Position numbers and translations under genes: made by a program
Source: Erysipelotrichaceae bacterium
GTDB taxonomy: Bacteria; Bacillota_I; Bacilli_A; Erysipelotrichales; Erysipelotrichaceae
Direction: 5' to 3'
NCBI GenBank assembly: GCA_963676105.1
Contig: OY781039.1
Coordinates: 1,740,001-1,772,000, forward strand
DNA length: 32,000 nt
The notes under the pieces: generated by a model
What the model saw: the letters and a program-made list of their open reading frames with translations, nothing else
Databases searched by the model: none
What the model was told of the DNA's origin: nothing
In this document: positions 2,376-18,972 of the stretch, one piece after another
Layout: each line of letters starts with the position of its first letter
How positions within the stretch are numbered: the first letter of the stretch is position 1

Positions 2376-2939
2376 ATGCACATGAGTCAGATAAAAAAAT
2401 ACAGTTTTATTTTCACATTAAGCATCTTTGCTTTATCTTTTATTAATATTATTTTTGCATTATTAGGACTGATTTGTTATTTCAGTCCTTTATACTTGTT
2501 TATGAAGTATAAGGATAAGACGTTTTGTAAAAAGTATTGTCCAAGAGCATCGCTTTTACAAACAATCTTTTCTAGGATTGGTTTACACAAACCTATTCCT
2601 AAATGGATGAATAATGAAAACATCAAAGAGTTTATGATCTATTATATGGGAGCTAATTTTATCTTTGCGATTCTTTCAACCACAATGATCTTCTTAGGAC
2701 GTATGGAACCGATGTCTTATATCCGATTGTTTATGGCTATTCCTACCTATGTTGAGTTACCTCAACTTATAACGATTGCTTTACCAGATTATTTAATTCA
2801 CTACAGTTATCGGATTCTATCGATGTTATTTTCATCGATATTAATTGGCTTTGTATTAGGTTTTATTTATGCCCCAAGAACATGGTGTGTGATATGTCCT
2901 GTTAATACATTAAGTGTACCTAGGAGTTTAAAAATATGA
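2376..2939 (+). CDS. Polytopic membrane protein with two Cys-x(2,3)-Cys-Pro motifs (NapH/NosR-type membrane 4Fe-4S-binding-like)
   Basis: It has several hydrophobic helices. FCKKYCPRASL and WCVICPVNTL resemble the (F/W)CxxxCP motif of membrane polyferredoxin-like proteins. The start is uncertain: ATG at 2376 or 2382, or TTG at 2346 as in the ORF track. Its stop overlaps the next start (ATGA). Confidence 0.6.
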   Translation: MHMSQIKKYSFIFTLSIFALSFINIIFALLGLICYFSPLYLFMKYKDKTFCKKYCPRASLLQTIFSRIGLHKPIPKWMNNENIKEFMIYYMGANFIFAILSTTMIFLGRMEPMSYIRLFMAIPTYVELPQLITIALPDYLIHYSYRILSMLFSSILIGFVLGFIYAPRTWCVICPVNTLSVPRSLKI

Positions 2940-3280
2940 TTAATCAAAAGACTGTTAATCTTTTCTACTATGCAGGATTAACATTACTAGTGTTTGATAT
3001 CTACAAAGCTTTTCAAGTAAATGCGTTTTGGGATATTTTTAAGAATCTAATTTTTATAGTTATCGTATTATATATGATATTTATTTATCCAAAAAGACGG
3101 TTAAATTTAACTGAAGATATCTTCTCTATTCTTTTTATATATTTCTTAGCCTATGGAATTCGATCAGTTATGAATGCTTACTACATAGGCATAATTGTTT
3201 CAATTATCTATACAGTCGGTATAATTGCTTATAAAGTGTATCGTAAGAAACACAAGTATTCTTTTTATTTAAAGAAGTAG
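2936..3280 (+). CDS. Small integral membrane protein, unknown function
   Basis: 114 aa with about 4 hydrophobic segments. It is translationally coupled to the upstream gene by a 4-nt overlap. Confidence 0.55.
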   Translation: MINQKTVNLFYYAGLTLLVFDIYKAFQVNAFWDIFKNLIFIVIVLYMIFIYPKRRLNLTEDIFSILFIYFLAYGIRSVMNAYYIGIIVSIIYTVGIIAYKVYRKKHKYSFYLKK

Positions 3281-3286
3281 GAGTTA

Positions 3287-3700
3287 ATGATGGAAGACTT
3301 AAAAGAGTTTACAGGATTTTTAATCATCGCTTCAATGGCTGTTTTATCATTTAGGTATGTATTAAAATTTGTATTTAAAAAATATGGTAAACAGTTAGAT
3401 GAAAGTCTAAGAGCTAAACTAGTATCTCTAATGACCTTCAATAAAAAGATTCATCCTTTTGTAGCCTATGCAGCTGTTGGCTTTGTTGTGTTGCATGTCT
3501 ATGTTGTGACTGGATTTAATTTGCGTTTTAATTTCACAGAACTAAGCGGGATATTTGCGGCATCATTTATTATTTTAAATATTATTGTTGGAATCTTAGG
3601 TCAATATGTTATGACTAAACCACGACCTAAATGGTTTAAATTTATGCATCGATTATTAACTGTATTAGCTATTATTACCATCATTATTCATGTTGATTAA
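3287..3700 (+). CDS. Four-TM membrane protein with two His-x13-His helices (cytochrome-b-like spacing)
   Basis: 137 aa with RBS TAGGAG. The predicted TM helices contain H56/H70 and H121/H135, exactly 14 residues apart in each helix. Confidence 0.6.
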   Translation: MMEDLKEFTGFLIIASMAVLSFRYVLKFVFKKYGKQLDESLRAKLVSLMTFNKKIHPFVAYAAVGFVVLHVYVVTGFNLRFNFTELSGIFAASFIILNIIVGILGQYVMTKPRPKWFKFMHRLLTVLAIITIIIHVD

Positions 3701-3734: not shown

Positions 3735-5270
3735 ATCATAGATAACGACTCTATTACGACCAGTTGTTTTAGCCTTATACATCGCTTTGTCCGCTTTTGA
3801 GATAAGTGCATCAAGATTATCGTTTTCATCTGCAAATGCCACACCAGCACTTATGGTTAATTTAAAACTAGGATCTTCTTTAATAAATGAAAATTCCTGC
3901 ACATCACTTAATGTTCGTTGAGCAAGTTTAAGTGCTTCACTTTGACTATCAATTTTAATCAATACAACAAACTCTTCACCACCATATCGAGTGACAATAT
4001 CAGAGCTTCTAAACCGTTTTCTAAGTAATGCGCCAATATTTCGAATGACATCATCACCAACCGCATGACCATAGGTGTCATTGACGACTTTAAAGAAATC
4101 AATATCGAAGAATAATACAGCTAGTTTATAGAATTCATTATGATTAGATGATAACCAGTTGTTACCTTGATCAATAAGTTCACGTCGATTATTAAGTGAA
4201 CTGAGTTCATCGGTTTTAGATAATTTTTCAAGTTCTATTCTTGATTTAACTTTGTTTGTTGTTTGATTTATGATTTTTAAACGCCCTACCACTTTTCCTG
4301 AATTATTTTCAATGGATCTGGTTTTAACTTCCCAATATTCATCATGTTCAAAACTATAATATTCAAATATACCTGCATTATTGTTAAAAACTTCTTGTAA
4401 GTCTTTGTTTTGATTTAAGATGGTGTATTCAGAGTTAATCGCATTTTTATTTAATTCAACTGAATGGTGGTTTAAAAACTTTTCAGCTTCAAAGTTATAA
4501 TCCAGCACAATGTTACGATTACTAATAACGATAATTCCATCATGGCTTGATTGAAATAAATCAAAACGTACTTTGGACTTAAGTTGTAAGTTATCATTCA
4601 ATATTATTGAAACTGCTAATATAAATACACTTATAGGTAAGACGAGTGCTGTGTAATCTAAAGGTAGATTAAAAGGATCAAAGAGTCCAATTAAAACCGC
4701 AATAACAGGGAGAATACTGGCAAGTAACATCGCTCCATATTTCCGTTTCTCATTTGGTCCGCTTTTTACAAATTCAATCACAAACATAACGATAACGGCT
4801 AAGGTTAGAACTAATACATAAACAATATGTATGTAATAACCTAAACCAGAAGTTGTGTTGATTAGCCAAAAATTATCCAATTGAACTAAATGAGGATCAG
4901 AATAGAACCCGTTATGGAAATCATTGGTAAAACGCATGAGTATTGTGATAAATGGAAGTATGAAAAATATAAATGAAGTAAGTGAAAAGAATTTCTTAAT
5001 TTTCCCTAAATAAAGCAAACTAACAACTAGCCAGACTGAATTAATTAACGGGATAGGTATGTATTCAAAATCAACCCAAAAGATGGCTGCTTCAACGGTA
5101 TGGCTGTTGAGTTCAGCAAGATATCCAAAATCATACATAAATACCAACAACATTAAAAAGGCAAGGGCATAGGAATATTCACTCTTACCATTATTTATTA
5201 AATAGAAAGCTAAAAAAGTTGTGATTAATGCCGCGATAAAAATATACATCGTTATAATGTTCAACAACAT
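3720..5270 (-). CDS. Membrane-anchored diguanylate cyclase (multi-TM sensor + PAS-like linker + GGDEF)
   Basis: 516 aa. The N-terminal ~230 aa form 7-8 hydrophobic helices. The C-terminal domain has RYGGEEFVVL (a GGEEF active site) with an RSSD I-site five residues upstream, plus DIDFFKVVNDTYGH. RBS is AAAAGGAGAG. Confidence 0.9.
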   Translation of the reverse strand: MLLNIITMYIFIAALITTFLAFYLINNGKSEYSYALAFLMLLVFMYDFGYLAELNSHTVEAAIFWVDFEYIPIPLINSVWLVVSLLYLGKIKKFFSLTSFIFFILPFITILMRFTNDFHNGFYSDPHLVQLDNFWLINTTSGLGYYIHIVYVLVLTLAVIVMFVIEFVKSGPNEKRKYGAMLLASILPVIAVLIGLFDPFNLPLDYTALVLPISVFILAVSIILNDNLQLKSKVRFDLFQSSHDGIIVISNRNIVLDYNFEAEKFLNHHSVELNKNAINSEYTILNQNKDLQEVFNNNAGIFEYYSFEHDEYWEVKTRSIENNSGKVVGRLKIINQTTNKVKSRIELEKLSKTDELSSLNNRRELIDQGNNWLSSNHNEFYKLAVLFFDIDFFKVVNDTYGHAVGDDVIRNIGALLRKRFRSSDIVTRYGGEEFVVLIKIDSQSEALKLAQRTLSDVQEFSFIKEDPSFKLTISAGVAFADENDNLDALISKADKAMYKAKTTGRNRVVIYDKKNP

Positions 5271-15006: not shown

Positions 15007-15684
15007 ATGAATTTCACATTTTTGTACATCATAGGGGTTGTGTTGATATTATTTGTATTTTACGAATCCTATGGATTTTATCGAAGAGCTTATAAAAGAG
15101 GATTAGAAATTGGTATGAGTGAATCACAACTTAAAGAAACAACAAGAATGTCAGTTATCTTCTCGATTGTGCCTTCTATTCCTATTCTTATTGGATTAGT
15201 CACCATGATTCCACTTTTTGGTGATGTGGTCATTCCTTGGATTCGTCTGTCTGTTGTAGGTTCAGTTTCTTATGAAACCTATGCAGCGCTCGCAATAAAG
15301 AATGCAGCGAATATTTTGAGTTTAACAGATGATTTAAAAGTCTATTCCACAGCGATATGGACAATGACCATTTCCATTATGTCAGGTGCAATAATACTTT
15401 TATTCTTTTATCGATCATATCAAAGTAAATTAGCAGCCATTCGTGAAAAGAATGTTGCGTGGTCTAACATTCTAATATCAGCCTTATTCATGGGACTTGT
15501 AGGTACCATTGGTGCTCAGCAAATAACCATGGGTGGCTATAATGTTTTAGCTTTATTTATATCAATGGGTATCATGGGAATTTTAGGTGGTTTTTCGCTT
15601 AAATATAAATGGCTTGAAGAGTTTGCATTACCCATTTCAATTTTAGGTACATTGGTCGCAATGTACTTTGTGTTAGGGATGTGA
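15007..15684 (+). CDS. Polytopic membrane protein, unknown function (first of a coupled pair)
   Basis: 225 aa with about 6 hydrophobic segments. RBS is AAAGGGGA. Its stop overlaps the start of the next ORF. Confidence 0.65.
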   Translation: MNFTFLYIIGVVLILFVFYESYGFYRRAYKRGLEIGMSESQLKETTRMSVIFSIVPSIPILIGLVTMIPLFGDVVIPWIRLSVVGSVSYETYAALAIKNAANILSLTDDLKVYSTAIWTMTISIMSGAIILLFFYRSYQSKLAAIREKNVAWSNILISALFMGLVGTIGAQQITMGGYNVLALFISMGIMGILGGFSLKYKWLEEFALPISILGTLVAMYFVLGM

Positions 15685-16343
15685 TTATGAAAGATAATTA
15701 TATTGAACAAGTTCATAAACATGGATTTAGATTTGTGCTTATTGCAAGTTTATTAATGTTACTAGTACCACTTAGTTTTAGTGTTATTCATAATGCGTGG
15801 CCGACCCTTGATTTAGTGGTTGTTGGGATGATGTCTGTAGGTGTTATCTATATTCCAATAGGAATAATAGAAACATTTACTTATGCGCCAATGATGGGTG
15901 TTGGTGCAACATATCTAGCTAATATTACAGGGAATGTTTCTAATATGAAATTGCCTGTTGCATTATCTGCAATGAGACAAGCAAAAGTTGAAGCAGGAAG
16001 TGATGAAGGTGAAGTTATCGCGACCTTAGCGGTTGCCTCTAGTTCGATGGTGACCATGCTTATTATAGCGGTCGGTGTCATTATTCTTCTACCGTACTTA
16101 GATAGTATTAAAGAGTTCTTGGGACCTGTAACGGATTATTTAGTACCAGCAATTTTCGGAGCTTTAGGTTTTGTTTTTATCTTTAGAAACTGGAAGTTAA
16201 CGGTTGTTCCTTTAGTTAGTATGCTAATCTTATTTGCCTTTGTAATAAAAGATCCAAGTGTGCAACCAGCGTTAGTTCCTGTCGCATCAGTTCTTTCATT
16301 ATTGGCAGCACGTTTTATGTTTAAGAAAGGTTGGGTTAAATAA
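15681..16343 (+). CDS. Polytopic membrane protein, unknown function (second of a coupled pair)
   Basis: 220 aa and hydrophobic throughout. The start is GTG at 15681 (overlapping the upstream stop) or ATG at 15687. Its stop TAA shares one nucleotide with the ATG of the peptidase gene (TAATG). Confidence 0.65.
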   Translation: MIMKDNYIEQVHKHGFRFVLIASLLMLLVPLSFSVIHNAWPTLDLVVVGMMSVGVIYIPIGIIETFTYAPMMGVGATYLANITGNVSNMKLPVALSAMRQAKVEAGSDEGEVIATLAVASSSMVTMLIIAVGVIILLPYLDSIKEFLGPVTDYLVPAIFGALGFVFIFRNWKLTVVPLVSMLILFAFVIKDPSVQPALVPVASVLSLLAARFMFKKGWVK

Positions 16344-17677
16344 TGGATTTAAATTTAGCTAAAAAGCATCTACAAGATGCAATTCAATGTGAAACAGTAA
16401 GTTATTATGAACGCGAAAGAATAGATTTCAAAGAATATGATAAGTTCATAAAACTATTAAAGAAGAATTATCCACTTTTACACAAAAAAGCAAAACTTAT
16501 TAAGATTTTAGATTATTCATTGATCTTCCACATTAAAGGAAGTACAGATCAAAAACCAGTAGCGTTTATGGGGCATTATGATGTTGTGCCAGTATCGGAT
16601 TCATGGGTGAATAAACCGTTTGGTGGTGAAGAAATCGATGGCTATATCTATGGGCGAGGTACTTTAGATATGAAAGGTCATGTGATAGCACTCTTAGAAG
16701 CTATGGAAAGCTTACTTGAAGAAAAATATGAATTCGAAAGAGATGTATATCTGCTCTTTGGACATAATGAAGAAACGGGTTCATCAAGACCTGATTCAGG
16801 TGCATTAAACACGATGAACTATTTTAAAGATAAAGGTATTGAATTCTATTCAGTCATGGATGAAGGTGGTGCATTTATCGATGGAAAGAGTTTAGGGGTA
16901 AATGGTGTAGTTGCGCTCATAGGTGTTGGGGAAAAAGGTTACTTGGATGTTGAACTTACAGCCACACAAAATGGAGGTCATGCCTCCATGCCACCTGAAA
17001 GATCCGCTTTATTTGAAGTATTTGAAGCTGCTTCAAAAATGGAAAGTGATAAATTCAAACTTGATTTTAATGAAGCAACGGATGCGATGTTTGAGGGATT
17101 AATTCCATACATGGAAAATAAGATGAAGTTCATTTTTAAGAACCGTAAGCTTTTAAAATCAGCTGTTTTAAATGCTATGGCTAAAGATCCTAAAACAGCC
17201 GCAATAGTTAGAACAACATCAGTCATGACAATGGCACAAGGTTCAAAAGCACCAAATGTACTTCCTCAAGAGGCAAAAGTAAATATCAATTGTCGACTTG
17301 TACCGGGAGATAGCGTTGATCAAGTGTTAAAACGTATTCAAGAGAGAGTAGGTTCAAACATTAAAGTTGAAGCCATGCAAAGTACTGAACCAACAAGTAT
17401 TTCACCTGCTAATCATCCAAGTTTCAATGTGATTAAAAAAGCAGTTGAAAAAGTCTATCCTAGCTTTGTGACGACGGTACCATATTTAATGATTGCAGCA
17501 ACTGATTCACGTGTTTACCATGGTTTAGCTGAAGGTGTATATCGTATTAATCCTTTTGAATCAGCTTATGCAGATTTACATACCGTACACGCTGATGATG
17601 AAAGAGTTAGTTTAGATTCATACTACAAAGGTATTGAGTTCTTTAAAGAAATATTAATGAATGCCTCAAAGGTATAA
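16343..17677 (+). CDS. M20/M25/M40-family metallopeptidase (carboxypeptidase/dipeptidase-like)
   Basis: 444 aa. It carries the metal-ligand motifs of the M20 family: GHYDVVP, GRGTLDMKG, GHNEETG and MDEGG. Confidence 0.85.
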   Translation: MDLNLAKKHLQDAIQCETVSYYERERIDFKEYDKFIKLLKKNYPLLHKKAKLIKILDYSLIFHIKGSTDQKPVAFMGHYDVVPVSDSWVNKPFGGEEIDGYIYGRGTLDMKGHVIALLEAMESLLEEKYEFERDVYLLFGHNEETGSSRPDSGALNTMNYFKDKGIEFYSVMDEGGAFIDGKSLGVNGVVALIGVGEKGYLDVELTATQNGGHASMPPERSALFEVFEAASKMESDKFKLDFNEATDAMFEGLIPYMENKMKFIFKNRKLLKSAVLNAMAKDPKTAAIVRTTSVMTMAQGSKAPNVLPQEAKVNINCRLVPGDSVDQVLKRIQERVGSNIKVEAMQSTEPTSISPANHPSFNVIKKAVEKVYPSFVTTVPYLMIAATDSRVYHGLAEGVYRINPFESAYADLHTVHADDERVSLDSYYKGIEFFKEILMNASKV

Positions 17678-17683
17678 AAAAAG

Positions 17684-17691
17684 CATTTAGA
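17684..17691 (+). repeat. Left target-site duplication CATTTAGA
   Basis: It is identical to 18270-18277 and abuts the left TIR directly. Confidence 0.8.
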
Positions 17692-17710
17692 GGTTCTACT
17701 TAGAGAATCG
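17692..17710 (+). repeat. Left terminal inverted repeat GGTTCTACTTAGAGAATCG
   Basis: It is the exact reverse complement of 18251-18269. Extended inward, 24 of 26 positions match. Confidence 0.85.
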
Positions 17711-17772
17711 AGACTTATACACATATATTTTTTAAATATATAAATATTGAAAAAGAGTTTTGAATGAGTAAA

Positions 17773-17808
17773 TAAAATAAAAGCAACAATTTTTTTTGAT
17801 TGTCGCTT
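17773..17808 (-). terminator. Rho-independent terminator of the 41-aa peptide gene
   Basis: On the minus strand, AAGCGACAAT-caaaaaaa-ATTGTTGCTT (one mismatch) is followed by TTATTTTATTT. Confidence 0.55.
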
Positions 17809-17835
17809 TAATGAATTAAGCATAAGAAAATTTGA

Positions 17836-17961
17836 CTATTTCCCCTTATTATTAATTTCTTGGTTAGCCTCAATGATTGCTGACTTAATTACGTACTTTA
17901 AAACAATCATTGAAATACCAAAGTAAATGAAGCCTAATATGCTTGAAACAAAGAATTCCAT
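17836..17961 (-). CDS. 41-aa single-TM peptide encoded inside the mobile element
   Basis: I translated it by hand: MEFFVSSILGFIYFGISMIVLKYVIKSAIIEANQEINNKGK*. A strong SD GGGGGAG lies 6 nt upstream of the ATG, and it has its own terminator downstream. It falls below the ORF-track length cutoff. Confidence 0.55.
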   Translation of the reverse strand: MEFFVSSILGFIYFGISMIVLKYVIKSAIIEANQEINNKGK

Positions 17962-18167
17962 CAATTTCTCCCCCGAATTTTATGAATAGCGGTTACTATT
18001 TCTTTTTTATTATAAGTCTATTAACCATAAACAATTCATTAAAATATGTTTTGCAGATTCTTAAATTAGTCAGGGTAAATTATAACTATCTATTAAACAA
18101 AAAGACACTACATAAAATTTAGTTAAGTAGAAATCATTTCTCGAAAGAACCATAATTTAGTAAAGAT

Positions 18168-18192
18168 AAAACCGAGCAACTAACTCGGTTTT
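18168..18192. terminator. Bidirectional terminator inside the element, now serving plsC
   Basis: AAAACCGAG(18168-18176)-caactaa-CTCGGTTTT(18184-18192). A T-run follows on both strands. Confidence 0.7.
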
Positions 18193-18250
18193 ATTGCATA
18201 AAAATGCTTCAATATAATCCAACAAAATATCTTTAAGGTGCACTAGGTCC

Positions 18251-18269
18251 CGATTCTCTAAGTAGAACC
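18251..18269 (-). repeat. Right terminal inverted repeat
   Basis: CGATTCTCTAAGTAGAACC is the reverse complement of 17692-17710. Confidence 0.85.
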
Positions 18270-18277
18270 CATTTAGA
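18270..18277 (+). repeat. Right target-site duplication CATTTAGA
   Basis: It is identical to 17684-17691 and abuts the right TIR directly. Confidence 0.8.
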
Positions 18278-18288
18278 GATGAATTTCT

Positions 18289-18972
18289 CTAAGCGCTTTT
18301 TAGTTTAGTCTTAATCATTTCAACACATTCATTCATCACTTCATCATGACTTTTTTGTCTGAAGTCTTCAGGTAAAAGTGGAGGATGAAAGTGTACTGAA
18401 AGTGTATGTTTTACAGGACTTGTTCCATCGCATTCAAAACCATAGTTTTGAGTCACTGGTACAATTTTAGCTTTAGCTAAGAAAGCTGGAAGTACAGCAC
18501 CAGCTTTAAAGGGTAGTAAGTCTTGTCCTTTAGCTCGTGTTCCTTCAGGAAACACTAGAACTGATTTATTTGATTTTAAGAAACGAGTTGCTTGTCTAAG
18601 CATACTCACGTTTTGATCAAAATCATCTCGATCAAAAGTAATAAACTCGATGAGTTTGCCCCAATCTGCAATGACAGGTAACTTTAAGTTTTCCTTTTTA
18701 GAAATAAAAGTCATTGGATTTGGGTTAGCTGCGATAAGGAGTAATGGATCAAAGGTTCCTTGATGATTTGATATGTAGTAAACCGCTTCATCAGTTGGAA
18801 TATTATCGATACCAGTGAATTCAGTTTCTAGTTTTAAATCTTTGTAAAAGCCTTTACAGATATCATGAATAATCGCATAACGACCGGCAAAATCGAGTGG
18901 CTCTGCTTCTTTGGTTTTAAGTTTTGCCTTGACTAAGGTTTTAGAAAACTTTAACCATTGTGTAATCTTCAC
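18289..18972 (-). CDS. plsC: 1-acyl-sn-glycerol-3-phosphate acyltransferase
   Basis: 227 aa with the acyltransferase motifs NHQGTFDP (HX4D) and FPEGTR. It overlaps the fabZ stop by 1 nt. Confidence 0.85.
   Translation of the reverse strand: MKITQWLKFSKTLVKAKLKTKEAEPLDFAGRYAIIHDICKGFYKDLKLETEFTGIDNIPTDEAVYYISNHQGTFDPLLLIAANPNPMTFISKKENLKLPVIADWGKLIEFITFDRDDFDQNVSMLRQATRFLKSNKSVLVFPEGTRAKGQDLLPFKAGAVLPAFLAKAKIVPVTQNYGFECDGTSPVKHTLSVHFHPPLLPEDFRQKSHDEVMNECVEMIKTKLKSA

Follow-up and report, generated by a model that had tools for sequence, protein, structure and literature searches.

Several described systems are close to the element reported here. Mobile insertion cassettes are known from the Bacillus cereus group, where MIC231 comes from IS231 (De Palmenaer et al. 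2004, cited in PMC3129680). The IS1595 family includes members that carry passenger genes (Siguier, Gagnevin and Chandler 2009, as summarised in PMC8101967 and PMC3129680), and the norm given for its target-site duplication is 8 bp (PMC8101967). In staphylococci, IS1272 and TnSha1 of the IS1182 family insert into terminator hairpins, with no primary-sequence consensus at the target (PMC4923244). Against this background, we analysed a window of DNA (the whole 32-kb stretch under study) in which positions 17692-18269 very probably constitute a 578-bp mobile insertion cassette, namely, a non-autonomous element that has a passenger gene in place of a transposase, is served by an IS1595-like enzyme encoded elsewhere, and belongs to a family that selects terminators. 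By itself, the element in the window is unremarkable, being a cassette that lacks a transposase, and the mobile insertion cassette is a known kind of element; the IS1595-like branch to which it is assigned is undescribed.

Structure of the element and its insertion site

The element lies in a 611-nt gap between two convergent genes, encoding an M20-family peptidase and a PlsC-like acyltransferase, the latter being the first gene of a minus-strand fab cluster (Table 1). The stop codons of the two genes are at 17675-17677 and 18289-18291, as an earlier note on this DNA had placed them. The left end reads GGTTCTACTTAGAGAATCG (17692-17710), and its exact reverse complement forms the right end (18251-18269); extended inward (17692-17717 and 18244-18269), these terminal inverted repeats (TIRs) match at 24 of 26 positions, the first 19 being perfect. 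Even when up to three mismatches are tolerated, the window contains no further occurrence of the 19-mer, and the number of chance matches expected from 100 shuffles is zero. Both ends are directly abutted by the direct repeat CATTTAGA (17684-17691 and 18270-18277), the signature of a target-site duplication (TSD). A repeat-finding tool gives 9 nt for this repeat because the following G doubles as the first base of the left TIR, and a duplication of 9 bp is ruled out by the other copies in the family, where it is 8 bp. Hence, the TIR coordinates, the extents of perfect and extended matching, and the 8-bp TSD that the earlier note had described are all borne out, the last with the same length in other family members. 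The TIR also shares a stretch of 9 nt with the arm of the target hairpin (TTCTCTAAG); this identity is absent at every other insertion site, and we therefore treat it as a coincidence.

No transposase ORF is present inside the element, nor was one found elsewhere in the 32-kb window, either in the ORF list or by tblastn with the transposase described below, in keeping with the earlier description of the element as non-autonomous. Its sole conserved ORF encodes 41 amino acids. A 59-aa ORF on the plus strand (17943-18122) was rejected as a gene, as seven of its residues differ between the window and the copy at locus L007 (see below). An Rfam search of the whole window at gathering thresholds, and of 17500-18500 at E-values of up to 10, gave no credible match; likewise, no match was obtained for the element in plasmids (blastn) or for its end in a scan of viral contigs.

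Removal of the element together with one copy of the repeat restores the empty site AAAAAGCATTTAGAGAtgaattTCTCTAAGCGCTTTTT, and the predicted sequence of the pre-insertion site is AAAAAGCATTTAGAGATGAATTTCTCTAAGCGCTTTTT. On a recount, the reconstructed hairpin contains 14 Watson-Crick pairs, one G-U pair and one mismatch out of 16, the same as in the earlier note, and it folds at -17.3 kcal/mol (z = -5.3 versus shuffles). The right arm of this ancestral terminator overlaps the last codons of plsC; read on the plsC strand, the hairpin is now followed by GGGTTCTACTT, and the T-tract is gone. The element has a hairpin of its own at 18166-18194, which folds at -13.9 kcal/mol on the plus strand and -15.4 kcal/mol on the minus strand, and a AAAACCGAG...CTCGGTTTT hairpin is found 66-104 nt inside the end at L007, L033, L013 and L031. 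The hairpin probably now substitutes for the lost T-tract of plsC. The earlier suggestion of an internal bidirectional terminator replacing that of plsC thus holds for the hairpin and its conserved subterminal position, with termination at it being the predicted part.

Table 1. Features of the cassette and of its surroundings in the window
Feature	Coordinates	Strand	Basis and remarks
M20-family peptidase gene, left neighbour, convergent with plsC	16343..17677	+	Pfam PF01546 (E 1.3e-31), PF07687 (E 2.3e-14)
Left remnant of ancestral bidirectional terminator	17678..17691	.	A-tract AAAAAG and left TSD copy CATTTAGA (17684-17691)
Left TIR, 'B' end of cassette	17692..17717	+	First 19 nt perfect, 24 of 26 over the longer repeat; L007-L018 and L031 have elements bounded by an identical 19-mer
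Predicted intrinsic terminator of peptide gene, AAAGCGACAATcaaaaaaaATTGTTGCTTT then TATTTTATTT	17780..17809	-	Terminator scan; -11.0 kcal/mol
Cargo gene, 41-aa peptide MEFFVSSILGFIYFGISMIVLKYVIKSAIIEANQEINNKGK	17836..17961	-	ORF list; ATG 17961-17959, stop 17838-17836
Putative ribosome-binding site GGGGGAG, 6 nt upstream of ATG	17968..17974	-	Read from sequence; invariant in three cassette copies
TATAAT, -10-like hexamer of putative promoter, ~45 nt upstream of ATG	18009..18014	-	Read from sequence
Predicted bidirectional intrinsic terminator ATAAAACCGAGcaactaaCTCGGTTTTAT, subterminal at 'A' end, now downstream of plsC	18166..18194	.	Folding, family conservation
Right TIR, 'A' end	18244..18269	-	Conserved subterminal GTGCACC motif next inward
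Right TSD copy CATTTAGA (18270-18277) and remainder of ancestral terminator	18270..18301	.	GA-tgaatt-TCTCTAAGCGC-TTTTT
PlsC-like acyltransferase gene, right neighbour	18289..18972	-	Pfam PF01553 (E 1.3e-26); synteny kept in L001, L004 and L005

Unoccupied sites and copies at other loci

The orthologous peptidase-plsC junction, to which the earlier note had directed attention, is unoccupied at all four loci in relatives: the gap measures 16 nt (L001/L002), 9 nt (L004) and 25 nt (L005), with the neighbourhood kept and the peptidase being 93%, 80% and 79% identical, respectively, to that of the window at the amino acid level. Each has one hairpin terminator common to the peptidase and plsC, and homologous single hairpins stand at the position of the left remnant in L001, L004 and L005. 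The arms of the hairpin co-vary between species, and in all of them the right arm codes for the PlsC C-terminus. On this comparison, three related genomes show unoccupied forms of the insertion site. An exact pre-insertion allele was not recovered for this strain, the closest relative having 93% protein identity and a different hairpin sequence, and an exact-protein look-up of the window peptidase and PlsC returned no record.

One of the genomes that is empty at this junction (OY760660.1, locus L004) carries a copy of 576 bp elsewhere (L007, positions 318-893). The identity of this copy to the element in the window is 93.4%, as against 77% for the peptidase DNA and 82% for the plsC DNA of the same two genomes; its flanks are unrelated to those in the window, and its duplication, CAATTGTT/CAATTGCT, falls within the terminator AAAAGGAGCAATTGCTCCTTATTTTT. 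A third copy (L033, positions 2695-3268) is 76% identical, with both ends changed together to CGCTCTACTGGGAGAATCG, and has a perfect 8-bp duplication, GAAATTCC, within the terminator AAAAAACTGGAAATTCCAGTTTTTT. No genome was seen to have more than one copy, with one in the window and one perfect-ended locus in the 1.95-Mb chromosome OY760660.1. The search for copies elsewhere, which the earlier note had also raised, thus yielded two at unrelated loci, besides autonomous elements that share the ends (see below). Because the element is single copy per genome and carries a gene, we prefer the term mobile insertion cassette to MITE; of the double label first given to it, the former half stands and the latter fits less well. 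Taken together, the unoccupied sites, the copies and the same-ended family with its autonomous partners sustain the central reading of that note, namely, a non-autonomous element with TIRs and a TSD lodged in an ancestral bidirectional terminator.

Preference for intrinsic terminators

Beyond these copies, the identical 19-mer bounds cassettes of 626-1267 bp in metagenomes, whose cargo differs, with an alpha/beta hydrolase and small membrane proteins among it. All nine sites (the window, L007, L033, L008, L009, L010, L012, L014 and L013/L015) have a duplication of 8 bp, with perfect copies in five and a match at 7/8 positions in four. When the insertion sites that can be reconstructed are folded, eight of nine form A-tract/hairpin/T-tract terminators with energies of -7 to -21 kcal/mol, L013/L015 being the insertion at a site without a hairpin. 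By hand count, the duplication is centred no more than about 1.5 nt from the hairpin dyad at seven of the eight hairpin sites; in the window, unlike the other sites, it is 9 nt off the dyad. None of the insertions seen was in a promoter-side intergenic region. These observations support landing in terminators as a property of the whole family rather than luck, and the family appears, from the sites and the transposase sequences, to be an IS1595-like branch that homes to terminators.

It could be argued that what we see are the survivors of selection against genic insertions, and that the transposase itself makes no such choice. Every observed insertion is indeed a fixed survivor, the orthologous junctions, with their gaps of just 9-25 nt, are wholly terminator, and the bias could partly arise in compact genomes in which convergent gaps are nearly all terminator. 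However, passive survival within a terminator of 30-40 bp would not yield the observed centring on the dyad, no insertion was seen in promoter-side regions, where there is usually more room and insertion is likewise tolerated, and the terminators at both ends of the element fit adaptation to a terminator niche. Hence, we consider survivorship unlikely as the explanation and favour target choice by the transposase.

Extending target choice to the whole family, we tentatively propose, as a real possibility rather than a probability, that these transposons form an undescribed IS1595-like branch, that they recognise intrinsic terminators by structure and cut them with an 8-bp stagger whose centre is the hairpin dyad, and that they carry their own bidirectional terminators just inside both ends, such that insertions are transcriptionally near-neutral for the convergent host genes. 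In this "safe-harbour" fashion, they might ferry cargo as diverse as an orphan membrane peptide of 41 aa and whole type I restriction-modification systems across distantly related Bacillota. The literature on IS1595 in conjunction with terminators, hairpins or MITEs, in the papers that could be searched, contained no report of terminator targeting or of paired subterminal terminators. The family offers a natural data set of terminator-hairpin insertions with intact 8-bp duplications, which bears on terminator recognition by DDE transposases, and elements that replace the terminators they destroy would be natural examples of transcriptionally insulated insertion.

The passenger gene

The 41-aa product is predicted to have one hydrophobic (transmembrane) helix followed by a charged C-terminal tail. 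Relative to the window, the ORF in L007 shows five synonymous changes and one conservative change, and that in L033 retains 83% amino acid identity and is the best-conserved interior segment; this pattern of substitution indicates that the ORF is under purifying selection. The peptide family has no match in Pfam, NCBIfam or PADLOC. Only two clusters of it are found in protein collections, and an exhaustive search of representatives gave only its own cluster. The TATAAT hexamer listed in Table 1 was not called by a two-hexamer promoter scan. In L033, the predicted terminator downstream of the gene retains its stem, in which the alignment as read shows one compensatory change from A-T to G-C and two one-sided changes. 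Expression of the peptide from these signals is probable.

One possibility is that the cargo represents a type I toxin-antitoxin module, which might stabilise the cassette or the host region. Its length, helix and charged tail, the selection on the ORF, the very strong ribosome-binding site, and the presence of its own terminator with further terminators on either side are reminiscent of such a module, and a conserved promoter-like site is found on the opposite strand at 18128-18156. However, this site points away from the gene, and neither the promoter scan nor the three-copy alignment gave a convincing antisense promoter overlapping it. Further, no antisense RNA was found to overlap the ORF or its 5' end, the ribosome-binding site is not sequestered, the Rfam search, which covered known antitoxin RNAs, had no match, as with the protein family databases, and the three copies are too few for covariation. 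A toxin-antitoxin function is therefore doubtful, and we retain the reading of the gene as a passenger for an orphan membrane peptide. In this regard, the small cassettes appear to move orphan membrane peptides with a directly testable function, and their full-length relatives type I restriction-modification systems.

The cognate transposase

A 493-aa ORF is situated directly inside the shared repeat at L016, L015, L019, L020 and L031. The 19-mer GGTTCTACTTAGAGAATCG itself adjoins the transposase genes in L016 and L015 and is the right end of L031, an 8.2-kb transposon with both ends. In L016, a homologue of the cargo of the L012 cassette is found downstream of the transposase, which links the cassettes with the transposase-bearing forms. 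A type I restriction-modification system is the passenger of the full-length relatives. None of the loci had an autonomous element bounded on both sides and flanked by a matching duplication: L031 is two-ended with mismatched flanks, and L013 and L015 jointly give matching flanks on two contigs.

The 493-aa protein is recovered by the NCBIfam IS1595 transposase model NF033547 with E 1.4e-17 and 64.3 bits (cut-off 75), by Pfam PF12762 with E 0.0039 and a score of 17.7 (cut-off 27), and by the IS1/IS1595 zinc domain model NF050000 with E 8.3e-6 and 26.3 bits (cut-off 28). As the NCBIfam and Pfam scores fall under the curated cut-offs, the assignment to IS1595 rests on profile-profile comparison, in which hhalign against PF12762-bearing proteins gave a probability of 99.9% and E 1e-37 over 300 columns (region 24-382). 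An N-terminal zinc ribbon is present, in a region that aligns with the zinc ribbon of IS1595-type proteins; C49, C72, C75, D157, D246 and N320 are invariant, and C52 is found in at least 90% of the sequences. An AlphaFold model (pLDDT 80) has an RNase-H fold, with DDE transposases and integrases as its best matches. Taking these findings together, the cognate transposase appears to belong to a divergent, unnamed branch of IS1595. An unannotated interval of 578 bp is thus linked with a clade of transposases comprising about 55 protein clusters, which the curated family models miss and which are mostly unnamed in their sources, the few names being generic ("hypothetical," "transposase-like"). 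A tblastn search of plasmids and phages with the transposase had no match. It was seen neither in the window nor on the 1.95-Mb and 1.96-Mb chromosomes that carry the peptide cassette; therefore, the element may now be stranded.

These data bear on the earlier, tentative assignment to the IS6/IS26 family, under which the element would be a derivative with IS257/IS1216-like ends moved by an IS6 transposase via cointegrates. The 8-bp duplication agrees with this, as do the first six bases, GGTTCT, which match IS257/IS1216 ends as given in that note. However, the agreement is limited to these 6 nt, a duplication of 8 bp is equally the IS1595 norm (PMC8101967), and all the transposases adjoining these ends are of the zinc-ribbon IS1595 type, with no IS6/IS240 domain detected in Pfam and NCBIfam scans. 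Because the transposase at these ends is IS1595-type, we regard the assignment as wrong and an IS6 derivation as highly improbable. That the repeats are fortuitous or purely structural in a long intergenic spacer with nothing mobile, as the single copy in the window, the lack of a nearby transposase and the AT-rich sequence might suggest, has a negligible probability in light of the zero chance matches expected, the relatives with unoccupied sites, the 93%-identical copy at a different locus in a genome whose core genes are 77-82% identical, and the recurrence of the ends around unrelated cargo and transposase genes.

A model for insertion

For the mobile insertion cassette that we favour, we propose the following mechanism. 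The 493-aa enzyme, with its N-terminal four-cysteine zinc ribbon and RNase-H-fold catalytic core, would be supplied from elsewhere and act in trans, binding the 19-26-bp inverted repeats and inserting the element at a target whose strands are cut 8 bp apart; repair of this stagger would generate the CATTTAGA duplication. The family probably selects intrinsic terminators (A-tract, hairpin, T-tract), and here the terminator shared by the peptidase and plsC would have been struck, in its left arm. The hairpin at 18166-18194 would then stop plsC transcripts about 100 nt past the stop codon and might also insulate the cargo peptide gene.

Comparison with known systems

The cassette most resembles MIC231 in its organization: its TIRs match those of a cognate insertion sequence exactly, it lacks a transposase but has at least one passenger gene and a TSD, the interiors are modular and differ among copies, and mobilisation in trans is presumed. 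It differs in that the transposase here is IS1595-like, whereas IS231 is of the IS4 family, and in that insertion is almost exclusively in terminator hairpins, the subterminal terminators are conserved and the cargo is an orphan 41-aa peptide. With IS1595, the elements that have these ends share the 8-bp duplications, a single transposase ORF, an N-terminal zinc ribbon and DDE-type core, ends most of which start with GG, and full-length relatives with passenger genes. In contrast to that family, the transposase here, at about 493 aa, continues past the aligned region 24-382 for about 110 C-terminal aa (residues ~385-493), has N at the third catalytic position followed by E/R rather than the family K at +7 (as read from the alignment), and is under the curated Pfam and NCBIfam cut-offs. 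Insertion in terminator hairpins and the movement of a passenger gene recall IS1272 and TnSha1, whose transposase family differs; insertion of IS1272 removes part of the hairpin and leaves no target duplication, whereas a clean 8-bp duplication is made here and both hairpin halves are kept. The likeness to IS6/IS26 elements (IS257, IS1216, ISS1) consists of the 8-bp duplication and the GGTTCT start; beyond GGTTCT, their conserved GGTTCTGTTGCAAAGT-like end is unmatched, and the enzyme associated with the ends here is not an IS6-type transposase.

Insertion into the peptidase-plsC terminator

Between the genes for the M20 peptidase and PlsC, the window carries GGTTCTACTTAGAGAATCG (17692-17710) and, facing it, the exact reverse complement (18251-18269). 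These arms can be extended to 26 nt, of which 24 match, and CATTTAGA directly abuts both of them (17684-17691 and 18270-18277). With up to three mismatches allowed, the 19-mer has only two sites in the 32-kb window and no match across 100 shuffles. The left repeat starts with G, which accounts for a ninth matching base; as other family members show, the duplication itself is 8 bp. Deletion of the element with one repeat copy yields AAAAAGCATTTAGAGAtgaattTCTCTAAGCGCTTTTT, a reconstructed site folding at -17.3 kcal/mol (z = -5.3), whose hairpin has by our count 14 Watson-Crick pairs, one G-U pair, and one mismatch over 16 positions. Direct reading of the region thus reproduced every detail of what the earlier note had described, namely, the inverted repeats, the 8-bp duplication, their coordinates, and the hairpin pairing. 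The right repeat also contains TTCTCTAAG (18254-18262), the very sequence that forms the right arm of the target hairpin (18285-18293); we regard this as a coincidence, because other insertion sites lack such similarity.

Peptidase orthologues with 93%, 80%, and 79% amino-acid identity lie on contigs that retain the order DUF5058 protein, peptidase, and then plsC-fabZ-fabF-fabG-fabD on the opposite strand; the peptidase-plsC gap is 16, 9, and 25 nt in these relatives versus 611 nt in the window. In the relatives, one A-tract/hairpin/T-tract terminator (-12 to -15 kcal/mol) makes up the whole gap, and its right arm overlaps the final plsC codons. The arms vary between species yet remain complementary (GCAATTAG/CTAATTGC, GCGC/GCGC, and, in the reconstructed site of the window, GCATTTAGAGA/TCTCTAAGCGC); hence, as judged from this covariation, the right arm at 18286-18301 has its partner in the left piece at 17678-17691, now orphaned. 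Exact-protein look-ups of the window peptidase and PlsC returned no record, and a same-strain empty allele was not found.

The stretch directly upstream of the peptidase (15007-16343) encodes two membrane proteins, of 225 and 220 aa, the first of which matches the DUF5058 protein of the relatives; stops and starts abut or overlap from one gene to the next. The arrangement, which is kept in L003-L005, suggests a transporter-peptidase operon.

Copies at other loci

A 19-mer scan covering one genome per species recovered two inverted sites in the Erysipelotrichaceae MAG chromosome OY760660.1 (1,948,504 bp), the same genome whose peptidase-plsC site (L004) is empty. This copy (L007, 318-893; 576 bp) shares 93.4% identity with that of the window, with similarity ending exactly at the repeats, and its flanks, AAAAGGAG-CAATTGTT / CAATTGCT-CCTTATTTTT, form an 8-bp duplication (7/8 matching) within a terminator. 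Between the two genomes, the peptidase and plsC DNAs are 77% and 82% identical, respectively. As a largely noncoding element at a different locus is better conserved than these core genes, the comparison indicates that it moved after the two lineages split. The cargo peptide has a single other homologue, which led to a third copy (L033, 2695-3268) with 76% overall identity. Its two ends have changed together to CGCTCTACTGGGAGAATCG, and a perfect duplication, GAAATTCC, lies within AAAAAACTGGAAATTCCAGTTTTTT. The empty sites in relatives and the copies at other loci bear out the earlier reading of a non-autonomous mobile element, which we classify from sequence as a mobile insertion cassette belonging to an unnamed IS1595-like branch. 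The cassette was found in one copy per genome, and the chromosomes that bear it showed no cognate transposase.

Transposase-bearing relatives

In two loci with the same ends (L016 and L015), a 493-aa ORF directly follows the repeat; in L016, a homologue of the L012 cargo lies downstream of it, linking the full-length elements to the cassettes. This ORF matched the NCBIfam "IS1595 family transposase" model (E 1.4e-17; 64.3 bits, under the 75-bit cut-off) and the IS1/IS1595 zinc-binding domain (E 8e-6), and in Pfam it gave sub-threshold matches to DDE_Tnp_IS1595 and Zn_ribbon_IS1595 and none to IS6. Its homologues (490-510 aa) form about 55 clusters, mostly unnamed by their sources and otherwise bearing generic names; in their alignment, C49, C72, C75, D157/E158, D246, and N320/H323 are invariant, and C52 is present in at least 90% of sequences. 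A profile-profile comparison with PF12762-bearing proteins covered the zinc ribbon through the catalytic core (probability 99.9%, E 1e-37), and the best structural matches of the AlphaFold model (pLDDT 80) were DDE transposases and retroviral integrases. Hallmarks of the IS1595 family are a zinc finger, a DDE domain, and duplications of 8 bp (PMC8101967). Taken together, the family-profile, alignment, and model matches identify the predicted cognate enzyme as a divergent IS1595-family transposase, short of the curated NCBIfam and Pfam cut-offs, and the tentative IS6 suggestion made earlier is not supported.

Positions 100-8276 of L031 constitute one complete transposon, with the transposase, a CLB_0814-family gene, hsdM, hsdS, and hsdR between the same ends; no duplication is common to its two flanks. 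Such full-length relatives (also L019, L024-L028, L030, and L032) are 8.2-kb transposons with a complete type I restriction-modification system, and several of their contigs begin exactly at the repeat, as expected where assembly breaks at repeated sequence. Two contigs of one metagenome (L013, 1145-2201, and L015, 1-553) belong to a single insertion, each holding one end, with the duplication CCATATTA. The transposase N-terminus lies at one end, and at the other lie the conserved terminator and an ORF whose translation has a putative Dam-like DNA methyltransferase motif.

Cargo and terminator replacement

A metagenome scan yielded eleven further loci with these ends. The ends enclose cassettes of 626-1267 bp with interiors unrelated to that of the window, encoding a 73-aa membrane protein (L008), a 287-aa alpha/beta hydrolase (L009; PF00561, E 1.7e-25), a 76-aa membrane protein plus a 74-aa protein (L010/L017), a 144-aa protein (L012), or a 93-aa membrane protein (L014). 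Ruminococcaceae MAG RUG12659 (L006) has two same-orientation ends 494 nt apart (3552-3570 and 4046-4064), with no inverted partner within 8 kb. A near-consensus promoter, TTGACA-16 nt-TATAAT, comes after the first; the two could represent solo ends or an element that has been rearranged.

Features of the window element and its neighbors, the element in minus-strand order
Feature	Position	Strand	Remark
M20 peptidase gene	16343-17677	+	convergent neighbor, left
PlsC-type acyltransferase gene	18289-18972	-	convergent neighbor, right
Right ("A") repeat	18269-18244	-	
GTGCACC motif	inward of "A" repeat	-	conserved
Bidirectional terminator	18194-18166	both	
Spacer	between bidirectional terminator and TATAAT-like hexamer	-	about 150 nt, moderately conserved
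TATAAT-like hexamer	18014-18009	-	
Ribosome-binding site	17974-17968	-	GGGGGAG
41-aa ORF	17961-17836	-	
Terminator of 41-aa ORF	17809-17780	-	
Left ("B") repeat	beyond ORF terminator		opposite end of the element

Inside the element, conservation is highest in the peptide gene, which differs from the L007 copy by five synonymous changes and one conservative change; in L033, the peptide retains 83% amino-acid identity, and the stem of its terminator is still paired, with one compensatory change. The peptide is an orphan: just two clusters of it exist among 5.8 billion, a search of 1.84 billion representatives returned its own alone, and Pfam, NCBIfam, and PADLOC gave no match. Its size and hydrophobicity resemble those of type I toxins, but an antisense RNA was not evident in Rfam and promoter/terminator scans, and we consider such a function unlikely.

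On the plsC strand, the old hairpin persists via the right duplication copy, but GGGTTCTACTT has taken the place of its T-tract; the first good terminator after it is the bidirectional one within the element. The peptidase strand has no good terminator ahead of that one, so that read-through from the peptidase would likely run antisense to the peptide gene. In L007, L033, L013, and the 8.2-kb transposon L031, the AAAACCGAG...CTCGGTTTT hairpin recurs at the same subterminal place. Transposase-bearing copies have another conserved hairpin, AAAGAGGTT...AACCTCTTT, which lies 30-57 nt inward of the opposite end. These shared hairpins uphold the earlier idea of a replacement terminator and point to the element-supplied terminator being a family trait. 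Immediately upstream of the subterminal terminator is an outward-facing promoter-like TAGAAA-17 nt-CATAAT (18128-18156, plus strand); the same alignment columns in L033 read TAGATA-17 nt-TATAAT, with a changed spacer.

Target choice

The empty site can be reconstructed for nine insertions, and in eight of them (the window, L007, L033, L008, L009, L010, L012, and L014) it is an A-tract/hairpin/T-tract terminator, the L013/L015 site (-0.8 kcal/mol) being the sole non-hairpin; in single-end loci, an A-tract lies 10-16 nt beyond the repeat. Part of this siting may reflect survivorship in compact genomes. However, by our count, the center of the duplication is no more than about 1.5 nt from the hairpin dyad in seven of the eight, which argues for active choice of the target; the outlier is the window, with its duplication 9 nt off-center and an unusually long stem. 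One-base mismatches separate the duplication copies in half of the eight bounded cassette insertions (L007, L009, L010, and L012), in which the 19-nt ends are perfect; that the search selected such ends accounts for this contrast only in part. Three of the four mismatches are C/T and would convert a G-C pair of the target hairpin to G-T.

IS1630, of the IS30 family, also targets terminator hairpins. Terminator targeting by IS1595 elements was not reported in the literature searched, which excluded the founding paper. To us, the more interesting result is that this branch consistently inserts into terminators and carries subterminal terminators of its own. A further precedent for targeting terminator hairpins comes from a different family: IS1272/TnSha1 removes part of the hairpin instead of duplicating it (PMC4923244).
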